The notes: a model not told the origin generated them from the letters alone. A stretch of DNA of 64,000 nt from Candidatus Hermodarchaeota archaeon (GCA_048886185.1 JBHLKY010000007.1:99092-163091), one strand, 5' to 3'; positions 252 to 29,465 are shown, counted from the first letter of the stretch. A program made the numbers and translations.

Positions 252-998
252 TCAGGTACCATTTCTCCAATCTTCAACAACCTTGTTTGCCTCTTTGGCG
301 TACTCTAATTTTTTAGTATCTAGCTTGAGATTATCTTCTTTTTCAAAAAACTCAAAATACGAACATTGATGACATTTTGCGTAAAGTAACAGCCTAGGTA
401 TAGTTTCAGGCACTCGGACAAGACGACAATGGTTAATTGATCTAACAAAATCTTTAAAAGTTTGTGAATCTACATTAACAAACTCTAGTATATCTATATT
501 ATTAAAATTGATCATCATACTCGTTCCTGATAAATCCAAAAGATCTTCCTCTGTGATTGTAAGCTGCTCTTGATGATTGACTGAGATCTCTTCCTGTCTC
601 TTTATTAACTTTCTTAAACTGTTTGCAGAGAAGTCAGGAAATATTCCATCAAATTTTAAGACAAAATCTTCCATTAGGGAGGTAAGAATTTCTCCAGGAT
701 CATAATTTAACTTTTTTGATAAGTTATAAAAATCGTTGTATAGTAATTCATCGATCTCTTTGATTAAAATGCTTAAGGATTGGTCATTTAAATCATATTT
801 TCGTATCCATCTGTTATGTGCTTCTTTAAGGACATCAATCTCGTTGAGAAGAATTTCGCGTTCAAAAAGAATTTTCTCTATTAATGTTTCCGTTTCCTCC
901 TTCGTAATTGCTTTTTTCTGGACTTGATTACGATACTCCTCAATCTCTTTCGATAACTCTGACCTTAATTGAGTAGGATTAAATACTTTGATACTCAT
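252..998 (-). CDS. hypothetical protein, paralog A of a tandem pair; coiled-coil-like N-terminus and conserved C-terminal signature domain
   Basis: 248-aa ORF. Its C-terminal ~55 aa (NIDILEFVNVDSQTFKDFVRSINHCRLVRVPETIPRLLLYAKCHQC) align with the C-terminus of the adjacent ORF 1033..1608 (HIDQLTFLPDVTQEVFTRHVRSISHCGTVRIPSIFPKLVMYSKLQFC). I recognise no known family. Confidence 0.5.
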   Translation of the reverse strand: MSIKVFNPTQLRSELSKEIEEYRNQVQKKAITKEETETLIEKILFEREILLNEIDVLKEAHNRWIRKYDLNDQSLSILIKEIDELLYNDFYNLSKKLNYDPGEILTSLMEDFVLKFDGIFPDFSANSLRKLIKRQEEISVNHQEQLTITEEDLLDLSGTSMMINFNNIDILEFVNVDSQTFKDFVRSINHCRLVRVPETIPRLLLYAKCHQCSYFEFFEKEDNLKLDTKKLEYAKEANKVVEDWRNGT

Positions 999-1032
999 TA
1001 AATCACAACCATATTTAGGTAAAGAATGTCAA

Positions 1033-1608
1033 TCAATCTTCAATTGAAGTATTCTTGAATGTCTCTACCTCATAAACATCAATACGATCGCAAAATTGCA
1101 GCTTAGAGTACATGACAAGTTTAGGAAAGATTGATGGTATCCTAACGGTTCCACAATGACTAATACTCCTAACATGACGCGTAAAAACTTCTTGAGTTAC
1201 ATCAGGTAGAAAGGTGAGCTGATCAATGTGTAAAAAGTCAATCATGGCATCTGCTTCTTCAAGGTCGGCACGACCAATCTTAAGTCGGTCATAATGAATA
1301 ATACGTATCCTCTTAAGTTCAAAACGATCAAAAGTAGTCCTTGCACGTAATGCTGGAAGATGATCCAACGAGTCATTTAAATCCACAAGAATATCCTTCA
1401 TCATTTTAGTAATTGCATCTCCGAGATTCATTCGTAGATTCTTTATCTTATATGAAAATTGTTCATAGATTTCACTATCAATTCCTCGGATAGTGACATT
1501 TTTTAATTTGGATTTTATTTCTTCCCAGTCTTCCTTGTCAATTTCTGGTTCTTTTTGGACATTTTCGTCTTCGTTTTCATGATCTCTTCCTGATTCATAT
1601 TTATTCAT
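1033..1608 (-). CDS. hypothetical protein, paralog B of a tandem pair; acidic N-terminus, possible ribbon-helix-helix-like segment, conserved C-terminal signature domain
   Basis: 191-aa ORF. The segment NVTIRGIDSEIYEQFSYKIKNLRMNLGDAITKMMKDIL has a beta-strand/helix/helix pattern reminiscent of RHH DNA-binding folds (inference). The C-terminal VRSISHC..VRIP...P.L..Y.K...C signature is shared with ORF 252..998. Confidence 0.5.
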   Translation of the reverse strand: MNKYESGRDHENEDENVQKEPEIDKEDWEEIKSKLKNVTIRGIDSEIYEQFSYKIKNLRMNLGDAITKMMKDILVDLNDSLDHLPALRARTTFDRFELKRIRIIHYDRLKIGRADLEEADAMIDFLHIDQLTFLPDVTQEVFTRHVRSISHCGTVRIPSIFPKLVMYSKLQFCDRIDVYEVETFKNTSIED

Positions 1609-1760
1609 TTAATATTCCTCAAAATCTAGGTATATTGTTTGACGCGCTATATTTGTAACGCATGTATGACAAGTATGACTAAGCTATAAAAACCTATTCT
1701 TAAAGGTAAGATTAGCCGCGCAATATAAATTTTTCATCCAATTATTTACTCTTATGTTGT

Positions 1761-3143
1761 TTGGAGGTACTCAGAATAATAGATTTAAATATCATCAACG
1801 CCAAAGTCTTTCTAGAAGATAGCCTTGTAGATGCAAGTTTGGGTATTGATCAGGGGAAGATTGCAATAATTGGTAAAGAAGATTCTCTTCCTAAAGCCCA
1901 AGAAACGATCAATGCTTCAGGAAAAATAATTATCCCTGGTGGGATTGATGTACACACTCACATTTTAGATTTAAATTTTAATTATAGAGAAACATTTGTT
2001 ACAGGTACTAGATCTGCCGCTGCAGGGGGAATAACAACTGTATTAGAGATGCCCCTAGGTATTGAGGGAAAAACAGCTCTCGAAGTATTTGATATGCAGT
2101 TTGATATCATGAAAAAGAAATGTTTAGTGGATTTCGGGATAATTGGGTCAGCTGGTTATTCAAGCATTGATTATATTCCTGAATTAGCACGAAGAGGTGC
2201 GATTGCGTTTAAAACCTTCATGATTAACCCCTCAGAAGAGGAGGCGGAATTAAAAGATCTGGCTCCACAGGATGACTATTTTTTAATAAAAATCTTTTCT
2301 GAGATTGCTAAGACAGGACTTGTTAGTAGTGTCCATGCGGAAAATGATGCAATTATTAGCAATGAAATCAAGAATTTAATTTCTAAAGGAAAAACAGACT
2401 TCAAAGCGCACACAGCTTCAAGACCTGCGATTGCTGAAGATGAAGCTTGTATGAGGGCCCTTTTACTGGCTCATCATGCTAATGTTAAGCTCAATCTTGT
2501 CCATATGAGTTCAAAAAACGCTTTTAATTTTATTAAGGAAGCGAAACAGAGAGACTGGGATGTAACTTGTGAGATAACACCTCATCACCTTTTTCTCACT
2601 GATGAAGATGGTGAGAAAATAGGTTCATGGGCTAAAGTAGATCCACCATTACGCTCAAAAGAGCACGTTCTTGCCGCATGGGAGGCACTGAACGATGGAA
2701 CAATCGATATGATAGCTTCTGATCATTCTCCGTATTCTAGCGATGAGAAGAATGTAATAGACGATAATTTCTTCGAAGTTGGATCAGGAACAACTGGTTT
2801 GGAAACACTTCTCCCTCTAATGCTTGATGCAGTTAATAAAAGGAAGATTTCGTTACAGAGACTTGTCGAATCAACATCTACTGCTCCTGCAAGACGATTT
2901 GGGTTATTTCCCCGTAAAGGGACAATTGCATTAGGAGCTGATGCTGATCTTCTAATAATAGATATGCAGCGGGAATACACTCTAAAAAATGAAGAATTAT
3001 TCACTAAACCCAAAGTGACAGTATTTAATGGAATGAAGTTAAAAGGATCAATCGAGAAAACGTTTGTGAGGGGGAAATTAGTGTACGATACTGGAACCTT
3101 TCATGTAGAACAAGGACATGGAGAGCTCGTATCTCCTCTTTGA
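1761..3143 (+). CDS. metal-dependent cyclic amidohydrolase (dihydroorotase/allantoinase/dihydropyrimidinase family)
   Basis: 460 aa. N-terminal GGIDVHTHI metal-binding HxH motif, AFKTFM, and a D(H)SPY-type C-terminal motif typical of the cyclic amidohydrolase superfamily. TTG start. Confidence 0.75.
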   Translation: MEVLRIIDLNIINAKVFLEDSLVDASLGIDQGKIAIIGKEDSLPKAQETINASGKIIIPGGIDVHTHILDLNFNYRETFVTGTRSAAAGGITTVLEMPLGIEGKTALEVFDMQFDIMKKKCLVDFGIIGSAGYSSIDYIPELARRGAIAFKTFMINPSEEEAELKDLAPQDDYFLIKIFSEIAKTGLVSSVHAENDAIISNEIKNLISKGKTDFKAHTASRPAIAEDEACMRALLLAHHANVKLNLVHMSSKNAFNFIKEAKQRDWDVTCEITPHHLFLTDEDGEKIGSWAKVDPPLRSKEHVLAAWEALNDGTIDMIASDHSPYSSDEKNVIDDNFFEVGSGTTGLETLLPLMLDAVNKRKISLQRLVESTSTAPARRFGLFPRKGTIALGADADLLIIDMQREYTLKNEELFTKPKVTVFNGMKLKGSIEKTFVRGKLVYDTGTFHVEQGHGELVSPL

Positions 3144-3347
3144 CTTCTTTTTCTTCAAAATGCTTAAAACAATTTCACTAATTCGTATCTAAGCCGTAAC
3201 TAATATATAAAATATTGATTATTGAATTGAACCTCTAAAAAAATACAGAGAGGAGAGTCTAGAATTCAATTATTATCATTAAATCGAAATGGATTGATCC
3301 TATTAATTGTAATAAATACACTTTCAAGTTATAAACTGATTAAATTG

Positions 3348-3353
3348 AAGGAG
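3348..3353 (+). promoter_or_regulatory. Shine-Dalgarno site (AAGGAG) 9 nt upstream of the ATG at 3363
   Basis: The sequence aaggag followed by tttaaattt and ATG. It supports the internal ATG as the true start of the beta-helix protein. Confidence 0.6.
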
Positions 3354-3362
3354 TTTAAATTT

Positions 3363-4868
3363 ATGAAACATAGAAAAATTTTGATTTTGTTGGTTTTTAG
3401 TTTGTCTTTACTGAGTTTTGGTTACAGACAAAATATGGCTTCTATTGATTTTGAATCCAGGGAAAAAATTTCTTTAAACAAGAGCTTACAATATGTTTCA
3501 CAAAGTCCTATCTATATTTCACATAATGACAACTTCTCTACATACGCAATAAGTGGAGACGGGGGAAAGAATAATCCCTGGATGATAACAGGCTATAATA
3601 TTACAAGTAATACGAACATATTAATACATATACAAGATACGACCGATTATTTTGATATTTCAGGCAATCTTTTAGACGGAATAGATAGAACTTACGATGG
3701 TATTGCCCTCTCAAACGTTGTTAATGGATCTATCTCAAATAATACCATCAGAAATAGCTATTATGGCATTTTTCTTAACAACTCTGTCTATAACATTATT
3801 TCAAACAATTCAGTGTATTATAACCACGAAGACGGTTTATATCTACATGACTCCAGTAATAATGCCATTATTCATAATCTTATACATAATAATGGTCAGA
3901 ATCCAGGTGGTAGTGGTATCTTCCTTGATCCCTCAAATCATAATCTAATTATTAATAATACCATATTTAACAATAGCAAACATGGTATATTGCTTAATCG
4001 TTCTGATTATAATATAATATCTAGTAATAATGTATCTCATAACCATGAACATGGCATGTTTCTATATTATTCCAATTATAGTATTCTATCTTGGAATCAA
4101 GTCCATAGTAATGGTGAAAATCCTGGTGGTAGTGGTATTTTTCTTGATCCTTCAAATCACAATACTATTTTTAATAATGTCATATTTAACAACAATAAAA
4201 CTGGCATTACTCTTAATGCCTCCGAATACAATATAGTTTCAAGTAATAATGTGTCTTATAACCATGAGGATGGATTATTCCTAAAAGATTCCAGTTTCAA
4301 TGCCATATCAAACAATTTAATTCACAATAATGGTGTCAATCCTGGTGGTAGTGGTATTTTTCTTGATCCATCCCATTATAACACAATTGATCACAATTCC
4401 ATCTTTTCTAACGGTCTGGCTGGGGTAAACATTAGTACCAGCTCTGGAAGTAATCAGATAGTATTAAATAATTTTATTAACAATGGTCCTGGAGGCGGTG
4501 AATCTCAAGCCTATGATGATGGGCTAGACAATTCATTCCAGTTTAATTATTGGAATGATCATACTAATACTGACAACAATCAGGATGGCATAGCAGATAC
4601 AGCATATAACATAAATGGTACTGCAAACAACAAGGATGAATATCCAAAAGTCAATCAATTTGTACATCCTACTCCATCACCGTATTTCATAACCTATACA
4701 ACTACTGTGACAGTACCATTCGGTGAAACTGAAACATCAACAACAAAATCGACAGAAAGTGTATCAACAAGTTCTGAAGAACCTATCGAAGGATGGCCTT
4801 TAGCTCTAGTATTATTTTCAATAATAACACTACTTTTCCTTCGTAAATTTAAACAGAGAACTCATTGA
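3363..4868 (+). CDS. secreted/cell-surface protein with right-handed parallel beta-helix (PbH1/NosD-like) repeats, N-terminal signal peptide and C-terminal Thr/Ser-rich linker plus TM anchor
   Basis: The N-terminus MKHRKILILLVFSLSLLSFG is signal-like. There are many N-x-I-x-x-N/NNxG repeat turns and three near-identical NPGGSGIFLDPSNHN blocks. The C-terminus is a T/S-rich stretch, then GWPLALVLFSIITLLFL (TM), then RKFKQR (basic tail). Confidence 0.7.
   Translation: MKHRKILILLVFSLSLLSFGYRQNMASIDFESREKISLNKSLQYVSQSPIYISHNDNFSTYAISGDGGKNNPWMITGYNITSNTNILIHIQDTTDYFDISGNLLDGIDRTYDGIALSNVVNGSISNNTIRNSYYGIFLNNSVYNIISNNSVYYNHEDGLYLHDSSNNAIIHNLIHNNGQNPGGSGIFLDPSNHNLIINNTIFNNSKHGILLNRSDYNIISSNNVSHNHEHGMFLYYSNYSILSWNQVHSNGENPGGSGIFLDPSNHNTIFNNVIFNNNKTGITLNASEYNIVSSNNVSYNHEDGLFLKDSSFNAISNNLIHNNGVNPGGSGIFLDPSHYNTIDHNSIFSNGLAGVNISTSSGSNQIVLNNFINNGPGGGESQAYDDGLDNSFQFNYWNDHTNTDNNQDGIADTAYNINGTANNKDEYPKVNQFVHPTPSPYFITYTTTVTVPFGETETSTTKSTESVSTSSEEPIEGWPLALVLFSIITLLFLRKFKQRTH
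3741..4440 (+). repeat. in-frame tandem coding repeats, period 219 nt (73 aa), about 3.2 copies
   Basis: The anchor codons of NPGGSG occur at 3903, 4122 and 4341, an exact 219-nt spacing, with about 75-85% nt identity between units. Each unit spans about three PbH1 coils. Confidence 0.8.
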
Positions 4869-4955: not shown

Positions 4956-6827
4956 TTGCTTAATCGTTTTTTATCCCAATTAATCAGAGATAATAAAGAA
5001 CGAGAAACGACTAAAGTAAAAACTCTCAAGCAGATTGAACTGTTTATATTAAAAGATACACTCAAAGAGGCTCTACAAGAAGTTGACACTCTATTCTCCA
5101 ACGTTGAGTTAAATGAAGCAGATAAGTTGCAGATTCACATTCTCAAAAGTTTGATTCTCACTCAAATAGGAAACTTTGATACAAGTCTAGAGCTTGGTGA
5201 ACAAATATATTTAGAATGTCAACGATTGGAAAACCCCATATTAATTATTGATGCAATCATTTCACTTGCAAACACTAATTTTAGGCTTGATAAACTTGAT
5301 AAGTGTCTGGATCTAATTGACAACGGTGAAAAACTACTTAGTACTATTACCAAGGGAAATGAAGAAGAAATTATAGATAGAACTGTTGCATTAACATATC
5401 TAAAAGGGAAGGTTTTCTGGAAAAAAGGTGAACTTGATCAAGCTCTCAAGTTTATACAGGAAAGCTTTTCTTTTAAAGAAGAAAAGAGTACTTTATATGA
5501 AACTGCTGACTATCAAAACATCTTGGGGATACTTTTTGTGGGAAAGGGAGAGTTCAATAAGGCATTATATTATTTTCAAACCAGTCTTAAGATGTTCGAA
5601 GAACTCGGTATGAAATCCTCAATCGTTAAGTCCTATAATAATATAGGATTAATACTTTGGAAAAACGGTAACTTAAGGGAAGCTTTAGGTCATTATAAAA
5701 TGAGTCTATCCTTAAGTGAAGAACTCAAAAACAATCAGTTTATCGCAGTTACATCATTGAATATAGGTCTGATTTACTGGAATATGGGAGAATTAGATAA
5801 AGCTTTAAATTATTACCAGAAAAGTTTGGAAATAAGTGAAGAAATTAAAGATAAAGATTCCATGGCATCTTGTTTTAATAATATAGGAATTATATACCAA
5901 TTCAAGGGTGAATTGGATCAATCATTAGAATACTACCAGAAAAGCTTAGCTTTAAATGAAGAACTAGGCATAAAACCAGATATAGCCCTTTGTCTTAATA
6001 ATATTGGTGAAATATATCACATGAAAGGATCCTTTGAAGTTGCGAAAGAATACTTCACTAAGAGCTTGATTTTATTTGAGGAAGTTGGTGATAATTATAA
6101 TACAAGTTTAGCTCTTTATAATCTGGTTTTGGTTTCCATTGATAGTGGATTAACAAAGGATTCACAACTATATCTTCAGAAATTACAAGAGATTTACATT
6201 AAAGAGGATAAAAGGCATATTAGTCAAAAATTTCGTTTAGCCAAAGCAATCTTACTAAAAGAAAGTGAAAGGGTAATCAATATTGCTGAAGCTCAAAAAT
6301 TATTGTATGAAGTCGCTCAAGAAGAAATGATTAGTCTTGAAAATAACGTCACTGCAAATTTAAATCTCTGTGAGCTCCTTTTACAAGAATTACGAGCTAC
6401 TGGTAATGAGGAAATACTAATGGAATTGAAAGAGGTAGTATTTCGATTGGTAAGTGTTGCAGAAGGACAAAATTCGTACATCTGGCTTGCAAAGACCTAT
6501 TGGTTACAATCAAAAATAGCCTTACTAGAGTTTGATTTAGAACGATCACAAGAATTATTGACCCAAGCAGAATTAATCGCTAATGAGAAAGGACTAACAA
6601 AACTTCTAAACAAGATTTCAAGCGAACGTGATATTCTATTAAATCAATTTAACAAATGGGAACATGTTCTTGACCAAAAACCTTCTGTCAGCGAAATCAT
6701 TGAATTGACCCAAATTGAAGCAATGGTAGAGCGAATGATCCAGAAAAAATTAGACACTTCAGATGAAGAAGTAATGCAGTATGCGATTGAATCTCGACGT
6801 TTGGTTGACATGTGGGATAAGCATTAA
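4956..6827 (+). CDS. tetratricopeptide (TPR) repeat protein
   Basis: 623 aa. It contains at least six canonical 34-aa TPR units, for example YNNIGLILWKNGNLREALGHYKMSLSLSEEL and FNNIGIIYQFKGELDQSLEYYQKSLALNEEL. TTG start. Confidence 0.8.
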   Translation: MLNRFLSQLIRDNKERETTKVKTLKQIELFILKDTLKEALQEVDTLFSNVELNEADKLQIHILKSLILTQIGNFDTSLELGEQIYLECQRLENPILIIDAIISLANTNFRLDKLDKCLDLIDNGEKLLSTITKGNEEEIIDRTVALTYLKGKVFWKKGELDQALKFIQESFSFKEEKSTLYETADYQNILGILFVGKGEFNKALYYFQTSLKMFEELGMKSSIVKSYNNIGLILWKNGNLREALGHYKMSLSLSEELKNNQFIAVTSLNIGLIYWNMGELDKALNYYQKSLEISEEIKDKDSMASCFNNIGIIYQFKGELDQSLEYYQKSLALNEELGIKPDIALCLNNIGEIYHMKGSFEVAKEYFTKSLILFEEVGDNYNTSLALYNLVLVSIDSGLTKDSQLYLQKLQEIYIKEDKRHISQKFRLAKAILLKESERVINIAEAQKLLYEVAQEEMISLENNVTANLNLCELLLQELRATGNEEILMELKEVVFRLVSVAEGQNSYIWLAKTYWLQSKIALLEFDLERSQELLTQAELIANEKGLTKLLNKISSERDILLNQFNKWEHVLDQKPSVSEIIELTQIEAMVERMIQKKLDTSDEEVMQYAIESRRLVDMWDKH

Positions 6828-28022: not shown

Positions 28023-29465
28023 CTATTTTAAGTTATTAGCTGCAATTTTATCTAATTCATTTTTTAGGTTTTCATCAACAGCTTGTCTAGGTGGACGTTT
28101 GCTTAATTTAATAGCAATTTCTTTTGCTCTGTTACGAGCTGATGTTTCACCACCTTTCCTCCATTGATCACGGGTCTCTCTATTTATGATCTGTAAATTT
28201 TCAACTGTAAAAGGGAAATAAAGCTCTTTTCTGAATAAACTTAGCGTAGTTGGGTGAGATAGTAATGAAATATTAGCATCATAATCACTAAGAATATCTT
28301 GAGCAAATGGTACGCCATGATCTGTGATCCCTTGAAGAAGATGTTTAACCATTCCTGCGATTTCATTATCAATGATTAATTTCTCGAAGCTTTGAGTTGA
28401 TTCGAAATCCAGCATACCAGGCCCAGAAATCATATTGATTCCAGCGAGACCAGCTAGCAATGCCCCCATGCCTCCCTCAAATCCTGCTTGAGCATCAGGA
28501 ACTTTTGAGTCAGATAATGTCATATATGCATGTGTTGGTAGATTTAAGAACTTTCCCATTTGAGCATCTGCAATATTAATCATCATTGTCTCAATTGCCC
28601 CCATGGGGGTCGTTCCATTCCTCATATCAAATACTGCTGGAGATCCTCCCCATATAACAGGAGAATTTCTCTTGGCTAGTTGTGAAATTACAAGTCCTGC
28701 CAAAGATTCAGCGGTATGTTGAGTGACACAGCCAATTAAAGTTATAGGAGCTGTTGAACCTGCAAGAGGCATACTAATGAATTCTGATGGGATTCCGCTT
28801 CGTGCTGCGTCAATTACAGATTGAGTAGTTAGATTTGACCACATCAAGGGGGGACTTGGGCATGCATCAAAAATCGCCAAAGGTTTTTCAGCTAGTTTTT
28901 CCTTTGAAGTTCTTGTTGCCTCCAATAACTCTTGCATTATAGAAAAGCTTTCTATTCTAAAAGTGCCTGTAACAATCGGTTTGGAACAATTAATTAATGC
29001 GATGTACAAACGATGCCAATCTTGAGCATTATTAGGGACATCAGAACAAACAAGTGAGGTTGATTGAGCTGCAAAATTGGGTAGATGGTCCACAATTTTT
29101 GAAAACATTATGAAATCTGAAGATAATGCTTCTCGTATTGTCTTTGTTTCTAGATCTTGTACGAAAATTGCAGCAGATCCAGGATCAAAGTGAATATTAT
29201 CTTTTGAGAGCTGGATTACTTCTCTTCCTTCTCTATCATATAATTTGATTTCAGAGGGAGCGTTGGTGCGTAGCTTTTCAACTAGATCCTCTGGTATAAA
29301 GTACCTTAAATTTTTATAATGGATCCCTTCCTCCTGTAATAAGCTTTGAGCATCAGGATTTTCAATTATTACTCCTTGGTTGTGAAGAATAGCTTTAGCT
29401 TCATTGAATATCTTTTTCATGTATTCATTGGTCAATAATTCAGTTTTGGGTCTTAAAATTGTCAA
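28023..29465 (-). CDS. MttB-superfamily (trimethylamine methyltransferase-like) substrate:corrinoid methyltransferase, non-pyrrolysine type
   Basis: 480 aa. The N-terminus (YMKKIFNEAKAILHNQGVIIENPDAQSLL) and the overall length fit the MttB TIM-barrel. No in-frame TAG interrupts the frame. Confidence 0.75.
   Translation of the reverse strand: MTILRPKTELLTNEYMKKIFNEAKAILHNQGVIIENPDAQSLLQEEGIHYKNLRYFIPEDLVEKLRTNAPSEIKLYDREGREVIQLSKDNIHFDPGSAAIFVQDLETKTIREALSSDFIMFSKIVDHLPNFAAQSTSLVCSDVPNNAQDWHRLYIALINCSKPIVTGTFRIESFSIMQELLEATRTSKEKLAEKPLAIFDACPSPPLMWSNLTTQSVIDAARSGIPSEFISMPLAGSTAPITLIGCVTQHTAESLAGLVISQLAKRNSPVIWGGSPAVFDMRNGTTPMGAIETMMINIADAQMGKFLNLPTHAYMTLSDSKVPDAQAGFEGGMGALLAGLAGINMISGPGMLDFESTQSFEKLIIDNEIAGMVKHLLQGITDHGVPFAQDILSDYDANISLLSHPTTLSLFRKELYFPFTVENLQIINRETRDQWRKGGETSARNRAKEIAIKLSKRPPRQAVDENLKNELDKIAANNLK

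Follow-up and report, generated by a model that had tools for sequence, protein, structure and literature searches.

A conserved gene pair of Asgard archaea for a probable ribbon-helix-helix regulator with an undescribed C-terminal repeat domain

The gene pair and its products

Near one end of a 64,000-nucleotide stretch of DNA from Candidatus Hermodarchaeota archaeon (GCA_048886185.1, JBHLKY010000007.1:99092-163091; the whole stretch is termed the window here) lie two minus-strand open reading frames (ORFs) that are considered below as a probable two-gene regulatory operon. The first, gene B, occupies positions 1033-1608 and specifies 191 amino acids (aa); the second, gene A, lies 34 bp downstream at 252-998 and specifies 248 aa. 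All features of the pair are on the minus strand. Residues 76-221 of A align with residues 37-182 of B at 31% identity over 149 aa (BLASTP, E=6e-20), and A and B are true paralogs. The ORF calls and the alignment thus agree with the original prediction, made from the nucleotide sequence by itself, of a tandem paralogous pair of 248 and 191 aa separated by 34 bp. That prediction placed the likeness in a C-terminal signature of ~55 aa, and the signature is indeed shared by A, B and the orthologs of each, but the similarity extends over ~150 aa and takes in an N-terminal segment that resembles a ribbon-helix-helix (RHH) domain together with the domain C-terminal to it. Only B 1-33, A 1-73 and A 222-248 are unique to one protein. 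The N-terminal regions, described earlier as different, are so for the first 33 residues of B and the first 73 of A, and what remains of the N-terminal part is common to both.

The order of parts in B is acidic tail, RHH-like segment and C-terminal repeat domain. In A it is coiled-coil hairpin, RHH-like segment, C-terminal repeat domain and a conserved C-terminal helix. The tail of B (residues 1-33, 1510..1608) is rich in Asp and Glu in all orthologs and is predicted to be disordered, with a predicted local distance difference test (pLDDT) value below 50 over residues 1-39 of the AlphaFold2 (AF2) model. The corresponding part of A (residues 8-68, 795..977) is modelled as an antiparallel helical hairpin or coiled coil formed by helices 8-27 and 33-68. 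The earlier description of one N-terminus as coiled-coil-like and the other as acidic is therefore upheld. The C-terminal helix of A (residues 228-245, LEYAKEANKVVEDW, 264..317) is specific to the A subfamily; its alignment columns are near-invariant and AF2 models residues 228-245 as a helix.

An RHH-like segment in both proteins

A and B each have a beta-alpha-alpha unit of ~45 aa whose helices are joined by a turn containing Gly, the layout of the RHH superfamily. In B (residues 34-80, 1369..1509) it consists of the strand KNVTIRGID, a helix at 45-57, a turn with G63 and a second helix at 62-77; its delineation comes from the AF2 model, from conservation and from sub-threshold Pfam matches of relatives. 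In A (residues 74-118, 645..779), where it was delineated by alignment to the B segment, by the AF2 helices and by the A-family alignment, it consists of the strand LSILIKEID and helices at 84-97 and 101-115, with a conserved G102. For the family the pattern is K-x-[VI]-T-I-R-[GN]-[VI]-D, followed by two helices with the Gly turn between them. Within the N-terminal part, conservation is highest in the TIR[GN] strand motif with its Arg and in the Gly turn; over 187 domains and in B numbering, T39 is conserved in 68%, I40 in 74%, R41 in 71%, Y48 in 85% and G63 in 92%. In both proteins AF2 gives an unpaired extended stretch followed by two helices, and such an unpaired stretch is what is expected for the monomer of an obligate dimer fold.

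Pfam scans of relatives were made with members taken singly (42 full-length and 49 trimmed). FitA-like_RHH is the commonest family retrieved, in 8 of the 42 and 7 of the 49, with a best E of 2e-4 that is still below the curated threshold, and next come RHH_1, RHH_3, PSK_trans_fac, ParG and VapB, also sub-threshold. No unrelated Pfam family recurs in more than two of the members scanned. A profile of the segment searched against PDB chains matches an anti-CRISPR chain at E 1e-4 (the fold of that chain was not checked) and, more weakly, pArc (single-chain Arc, 1u9p) at 0.13 and MazE6 at 0.23. That the segment is an RHH domain is probable but not proven. The original prediction had noted a segment of this kind in the acidic protein. 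The RHH reading gains support, from relatives whose sub-threshold matches are almost only to RHH families and from an operator-like repeat in the pair's own promoter, but the segment is present in both proteins, not in one.

The C-terminal repeat domain

No other part of the module is as well conserved or as confidently modelled as the C-terminal domain (B residues 96-182, 1063..1323; A residues 135-221, 336..596), which in B holds the signature of the original prediction. It is ~85 aa long, and in B the AF2 order of elements is beta-alpha-beta-alpha-beta-beta-alpha-beta, with pLDDT 90-95 over residues 100-180. The domain of A, homologous to that of B by alignment, is modelled with the same order, with block-mean pLDDT mostly 79-90 over 141-220 and 68 for 131-140. 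Repeat-like units are visible in the sequence (SINHYDRLKI / SFSHIDKLTF / SVSHCGTVRM / LQFCDRIEVY), with an N/H position followed by Cys recurring at equivalent places of internal units of ~21-24 aa. A column-offset analysis gives weak peaks at 21 (z 2.6) and 24 residues (z 2.0). The domain is described here as a short alpha/beta repeat, solenoid-like in its predicted fold.

No named domain corresponds to it, as the original prediction had supposed. Scans of both proteins against Pfam, NCBIfam, PADLOC and PHROGs gave only chance-level matches (e.g. HbrB, YolD, Cas4 and SduA). Against PDB sequences, a profile of the whole module matched Internalin K alone (E 0.02) and a profile of the C-terminal domain a MarR chain alone (E 0.06), both judged to be chance, and a PDB fold search with the domain returned nothing significant. 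The sole recurrent neighbours in that search, all weak, were leucine-rich repeats (LRRs) and right-handed beta-helices, with which 55-67 residues superpose at 1.7-2.7 A. The domain is not filed as an LRR, there being no LRR model among the Pfam matches of 51 C-terminal domains and the offset peaks being weak. It is new to Pfam and without a solved structural relative.

The signature positions had been thought invariant. Among 187 domain representatives the His of the HC motif is present in 26% and the Arg before it in 13%, and it is the neighbouring Cys, at 87%, that is kept. The Cys positions recur at a spacing of 21 residues, each in the corresponding place of the next repeat unit, a regularity that points to a structural ladder in the predicted fold. 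A metal site formed from the His and Cys positions was considered and kept at low weight, the His not being conserved. One 821-aa protein (P0115, from a Logan contig of 9.2 kb) has canonical LRRs, and its final ~86 residues are very similar to the C-terminal domain of B-family proteins; this may be a genuine fusion, or else a chimera produced by misassembly or a frameshift.

A family largely confined to Asgard archaea

When 1.84 billion cluster representatives were searched with a profile of the shared module, 269 matched at E<=1e-3 and 215 reached E<=1e-10, so that the family numbers at least 269 clusters. Close homologs (22 for B and 28 for A) are all from metagenome-assembled genomes (MAGs) of Heimdallarchaeota/Hodarchaeales and are all annotated as hypothetical; a protein identical to B (ACFFB2_08595) has been deposited from a MAG named 'Promethearchaeota archaeon'. 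Named members of the family are nearly all Asgard, mostly Hodarchaeales/Heimdall (Heimdallarchaeia), with a few from bins labelled Thor, Odin, Hermod or Kariarchaeaceae, and there is one distant member in Ca. Culexmicrobium. No description of the family was found in the literature.

By a domain hidden Markov model, one and the same module of ~145 aa occurs in several settings. It is found alone (~150 aa), with an acidic tail as in B, with an N-terminal coiled coil of ~75 aa as in A, or, in 40 protein clusters, twice over and complete each time in a single polypeptide of ~290-300 aa. Several paralogs of the family can be present within a single genome. Both halves of the tandem chains are B-like, hence they are not B-A fusions, and their use as a 'Rosetta stone' for a B-A partnership was rejected.

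Conservation of the pair and of its surroundings

The original prediction had raised the question of whether homologous pairs co-occur elsewhere, and they do. A scan with the B family as query, in one genome per GTDB species, gave 15 loci, a sample of B-type loci. B is followed by A on the same strand in 14 of them, with spacing from an overlap of a few bp to a gap of 38 bp and at identities down to 44%; the fifteenth stops at a contig edge. An adjacent pair of minimal forms occurs in another genome (INQ03_20935 and INQ03_20940). The homolog in LC_3 is a solo gene.

Beyond the pair there is little constancy. Downstream of A, past the window edge, are genes for a methyltransferase, a pyridoxal-phosphate (PLP) decarboxylase and an Asp/Glu racemase, and divergent from B is an amidohydrolase gene (1761-3143). 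These four are common to the closest relatives only, and no partner gene is conserved beyond close relatives; the earlier concern over partner genes out of sight past the edge of the window is not supported. The PLP decarboxylase recurs in six loci, which is most simply explained by shared ancestry. With B-A pairing conserved and the neighbourhood not, the constant unit is the pair itself. Neither A nor B matches a toxin or defence family in Pfam, NCBIfam or PADLOC, the neighbours are metabolic, and no ParA-type ATPase gene adjoins the pair in any of 17 loci.

Several individual loci deserve mention. In L016 there is an additional 255-aa ORF on the opposite strand (3287-4054, minus), immediately upstream of B and A; its match to the module (E 2.5e-8) is confined to the C-terminal half, and it may represent a third copy that has diverged or is decaying. 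Two typical B/A pairs are on contigs deposited as 'Bathyarchaeota' (L020) and 'Patescibacteria group bacterium' (L023) bins; given a typical pair and relatives of Asgard type, these contigs are probably mis-binned. In the window itself, genes for a NosD/beta-helix repeat protein that ends in a hydrophobic anchor (3294-4868, plus) and for a large tetratricopeptide repeat protein (4956-6827, plus) are near the pair. A NosD/beta-helix gene is also near the solo LC_3 homolog (L007, 4366-6756), probably a coincidence.

A repeat element in the promoter

Between a TATA-box-like element and the start of B is a candidate operator, GTCATACTTGTCATACATG (1661..1679), in which the sequence repeats directly every 9 bp (GTCATACTT-GTCATACATG) and does not form a palindrome. 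It begins 71 nt before the B ATG and 5 nt after the TATA-box-like element of the B-A operon, TTTTTATA (1685..1692), whose presumed promoter role accords with general knowledge of archaeal promoters; a TTTATA-type box is kept at this place in 10 orthologous loci. After the repeats comes a conserved block, CGTTACAAATATAGCGCG (1643..1660), recognized in an ortholog promoter alignment and perhaps comprising a third, degenerate repeat (TACA core) and a GC-rich element. The Shine-Dalgarno-like GAGG 8 nt before the B ATG (1617..1620) has GAGG(T/A) or a close variant as its counterpart in most orthologs.

In the ten closer orthologous loci the order is the same: TTTATA box, 5-6 nt, GTCATAC-NN-GTCATACATG, GTTACA...GCGCG, in most of them a GAGG(T/A) ribosome-binding site, and ATG. 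The GTCATAC cores are near-unchanged in these ten promoters, with one substitution in each of two loci, whereas the flanks diverge. The double repeat is unique in the 64-kb window (one match at <=3 mismatches, 0.03 expected), where no second double site, as a regulon would have, was found.

A 9-mer weight matrix was derived from the ten orthologous loci, and two adjacent 9-mers were scored on both strands of 13 other loci of 5-16 kb. In 10 of the 13, distant relatives and tandem-fusion paralogs among them, the top match of the whole locus is at the promoter of the family gene itself. Two of these ten matches lay just inside an over-extended ORF call, and the 13 loci include close relatives of each other and amount to about seven independent lineages. 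Upstream of the pair in L023 the repeats are ATTACATGT-ATGACATGT-ATTACATGA-AATGCATGT. In L025 they are GTCATACAA-ATCATACAT, and three of the four occurrences of TCATACA in 8.9 kb are within 43 bp at the family promoter, two of them 9 bp apart. A second, distal copy of the repeat is present ~150-190 nt upstream of B in L012, L014, L015, L016 and L017 (e.g. GCGTCATGCATGTTTAGCA beside a GCGCG block; GTCATACATG in L017), and some lineages may thus have two operator sites; the window shows no distal copy.

Paralogs beside an exporter operon

The five tandem-fusion paralogs whose surroundings were examined (L024, L025, L027, L028 and L029; ~281-305 aa, the gene being at 4001 in each) are all divergent from a two-gene exporter operon of the ATP-binding cassette (ABC) type, with ABC_membrane plus ABC_tran twice over. 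Their other neighbours differ. In four of the five loci the top-scoring 9-bp repeat site is in the intergenic region shared with the exporter. A tandem paralog so placed looks like the classic layout of a regulator beside its target.

Proposed mode of action

Taken together, these observations make it fairly probable that B and A combine into a heterodimeric RHH transcription factor that represses its own two-gene operon and carries a new domain for sensing or oligomerisation. The RHH-like segments of the two proteins would pair by their N-terminal strands, giving a ribbon of two strands to read the major groove of DNA, with N37, T39 and R41 contributed by B and a more variable strand by A. 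In one account of RHH proteins, the ribbon is the principal DNA-binding determinant (PMC3413123). As the two strands differ, the dimer would read an asymmetric site, and an asymmetric ribbon reading a direct repeat fits the conservation of the N-x-T-x-R strand in B with variation of the equivalent Arg in A. The candidate for that site is the pair of tandem 9-bp direct repeats, GTCATAC(A/T)T, which follow the TATA box, precede the B start codon and probably span the start of transcription. This is where an archaeal repressor would block recruitment of polymerase. Binding there would prevent RNA polymerase recruitment and the pair would thus repress itself. The coiled-coil hairpin of A would probably join two heterodimers, with cooperative binding of adjacent repeats as the outcome, and the ~85-aa C-terminal repeat domain would be the effector, serving to sense a ligand or partner or to add contacts between oligomers. 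The absence of any conserved neighbour of the B/A pair fits a self-contained regulator. What the sequences show directly is that the genes are paralogs, how their domains are laid out, that the pairing is kept and that a conserved cis-element goes with the family; binding to DNA, heterodimerisation, repression and the part played by the C-terminal domain are inferences.

Several points weigh against this proposal. Neither A nor B has a match above curated Pfam or NCBIfam thresholds, and every RHH match is sub-threshold and comes from relatives rather than from the two proteins themselves. Variability of the strand Arg in the A subfamily, seen in its alignment, means that A may add little to base reading or that each protein may homodimerise. 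The tandem fusions, with two B-like halves, bear on joint action of two modules by analogy only. Three of the 13 test loci (L007, L026 and L029) have no top-ranking promoter site, the 9-bp period is off the DNA helical repeat, and some other factor could be what binds the conserved element.

In general terms, this would be an RHH regulator with an undescribed effector domain, in paired or fused organisation and largely confined to Asgard archaea. A bolder extension, which is tentative and has the odds against it, is that the pair founds a natural class of obligately heterodimeric RHH proteins, occurring also as single-chain tandem forms and expanded in the archaeal lineage closest to eukaryotes. 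The C-terminal domain would then be an undescribed minimal solenoid fold that senses a signal, and strand asymmetry would permit direct 9-bp repeats to be read instead of palindromes.

Alternative interpretations

The alternative that survives best, though unlikely, is that each protein homodimerises, A and B being two separate co-transcribed RHH regulators, perhaps with different targets or as an activator and anti-activator pair. Most known RHH proteins are homodimeric, many members of the family are stand-alone proteins of ~150 aa, the LC_3 homolog has no partner, and the positions of the A strand that would face DNA are variable. Yet the B-then-A order in 14 of the 15 species loci, the recurrence of adjacent pairs and the single-chain tandem forms argue that two different modules act together, and the candidate operator is a direct repeat, not a palindrome.

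It is less probable still that the proteins do not bind DNA at all. The beta-alpha-alpha segment would then serve for dimerisation only, the C-terminal domain would be an LRR-like adaptor for protein-protein contacts, and another regulator would bind the upstream repeats. In favour are the standing of the C-terminal domain as the best conserved and most confidently modelled part, its weak fold neighbours among protein-binding solenoids such as LRRs, the joining of the domain to canonical LRRs in P0115 and the sub-threshold level of every RHH match. However, the most conserved N-terminal positions are those of the TIR[GN] strand with its Arg and of the Gly turn, the repeat element tracks promoters of the family across genomes and contexts, and the divergent placing of paralogs beside an ABC exporter is typical of a local regulator.

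A module of the toxin-antitoxin or partition kind, with an RHH antitoxin or a ParG/omega-type centromere binder for which the tandem repeats would be the centromere, is very unlikely. The best Pfam leads are to antitoxin-type RHH families (FitA, VapB and PSK_trans_fac) and to ParG, and a two-gene operon with tandem repeats upstream would suit such a module. But the two paralogs have the same domains as each other, neither they nor the adjacent genes include a toxin or ParA-type ATPase domain, and PADLOC gives no significant match. Synteny among close relatives and a distribution nearly within one archaeal group fit vertical inheritance, not a mobile module.

The HEPN-like R-x(3-6)-H hint of the original prediction, developed as a HEPN-type nuclease pair, is hardly credible and was rejected on conservation and predicted secondary structure, for though an R-x(4-6)-H spacing exists in both window proteins and 2 of 42 family members have a very weak Pfam match to HEPN_Apea (E 0.049), there is no significant HEPN match, the Arg and His are as poorly kept as stated above, and the segment is a predicted strand plus loop in an alpha/beta repeat domain rather than part of an all-helical bundle.

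Significance

Transcription factors of Asgard archaea, and of Hodarchaeales especially, are almost entirely uncharacterised. With the present analysis, a set of proteins annotated as hypothetical becomes a family in its own right, of at least 269 clusters, for which there is a domain model and for which both a DNA site and targets are predicted; the targets are the promoter of the family gene itself and, for tandem paralogs, the ABC exporter operon. Synthetic genes would suffice to test all these predictions in vitro, with no need of a cultured host. Natural paired or fused RHH modules are of interest both for understanding and for engineering asymmetric recognition of DNA by RHH proteins.

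Another feature of the window

PYLIS_3 is the pyrrolysine insertion element of mttB, and the window has an Rfam match to it (28418-28517, minus; 51 bits against a gathering threshold of 38) in the ORF at 28023-29465 (minus). This ORF of 480 aa is uninterrupted, with no in-frame stop, and the match is probably coding-sequence similarity of a non-pyrrolysine MttB-family methyltransferase, not a recoding signal. A scan of the window for bacterial promoters and terminators is not informative for an archaeon.

Comparison with known systems

Among known RHH proteins, those of FitA/VapB/CopG type (PF22513, PF01402 and PF12651) are similar in layout, ~45 aa with an N-terminal strand containing I-R-N/G, a helix, a Gly turn and a second helix. 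They are also the commonest Pfam leads for the family, and there are repeats in the pair's own promoter here. They differ in that family members score below the curated thresholds, that a folded repeat domain of ~85 aa takes the place of a toxin-binding tail, and that the pair in the window lacks a toxin partner, its partner gene being a paralog.

MetJ, Arc/Mnt and omega bind as RHH dimers side by side on short tandem repeats, with cooperative contacts; the met boxes of MetJ are 8 bp and the heptads of omega 7 bp, and an extra coiled coil in Mnt builds a tetramer. The 9-bp tandem repeats and the coiled-coil hairpin of A are possible counterparts. Those proteins are homodimers, whereas here two paralogs are encoded together, and the effector domain is unrelated to theirs.

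NikR has an N-terminal RHH domain and a C-terminal regulatory domain of ferredoxin-like ACT fold. The succession of an N-terminal RHH-like segment and a folded C-terminal domain is shared, as are His/Cys positions conserved in the C-terminal domain among orthologs of the window pair. However, the C-terminal domain is predicted here to be repetitive and solenoid-like, and across the family the His is not conserved.

Two RHH repeats are present in one chain in TraY and in engineered single-chain Arc. The ~290-300-aa paralogs with two modules per polypeptide are comparable and would allow an intramolecular ribbon. The differences are that each repeat here has a C-terminal domain as well, and that the window locus splits the modules between two genes. 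For the C-terminal domain itself, the nearest likeness is to LRRs and right-handed beta-helices (bactofilin, the SV2 luminal domain and the LRRs of TLR and TSHR), which are its fold neighbours and with which it has in common the ladder position of N/H then Cys.

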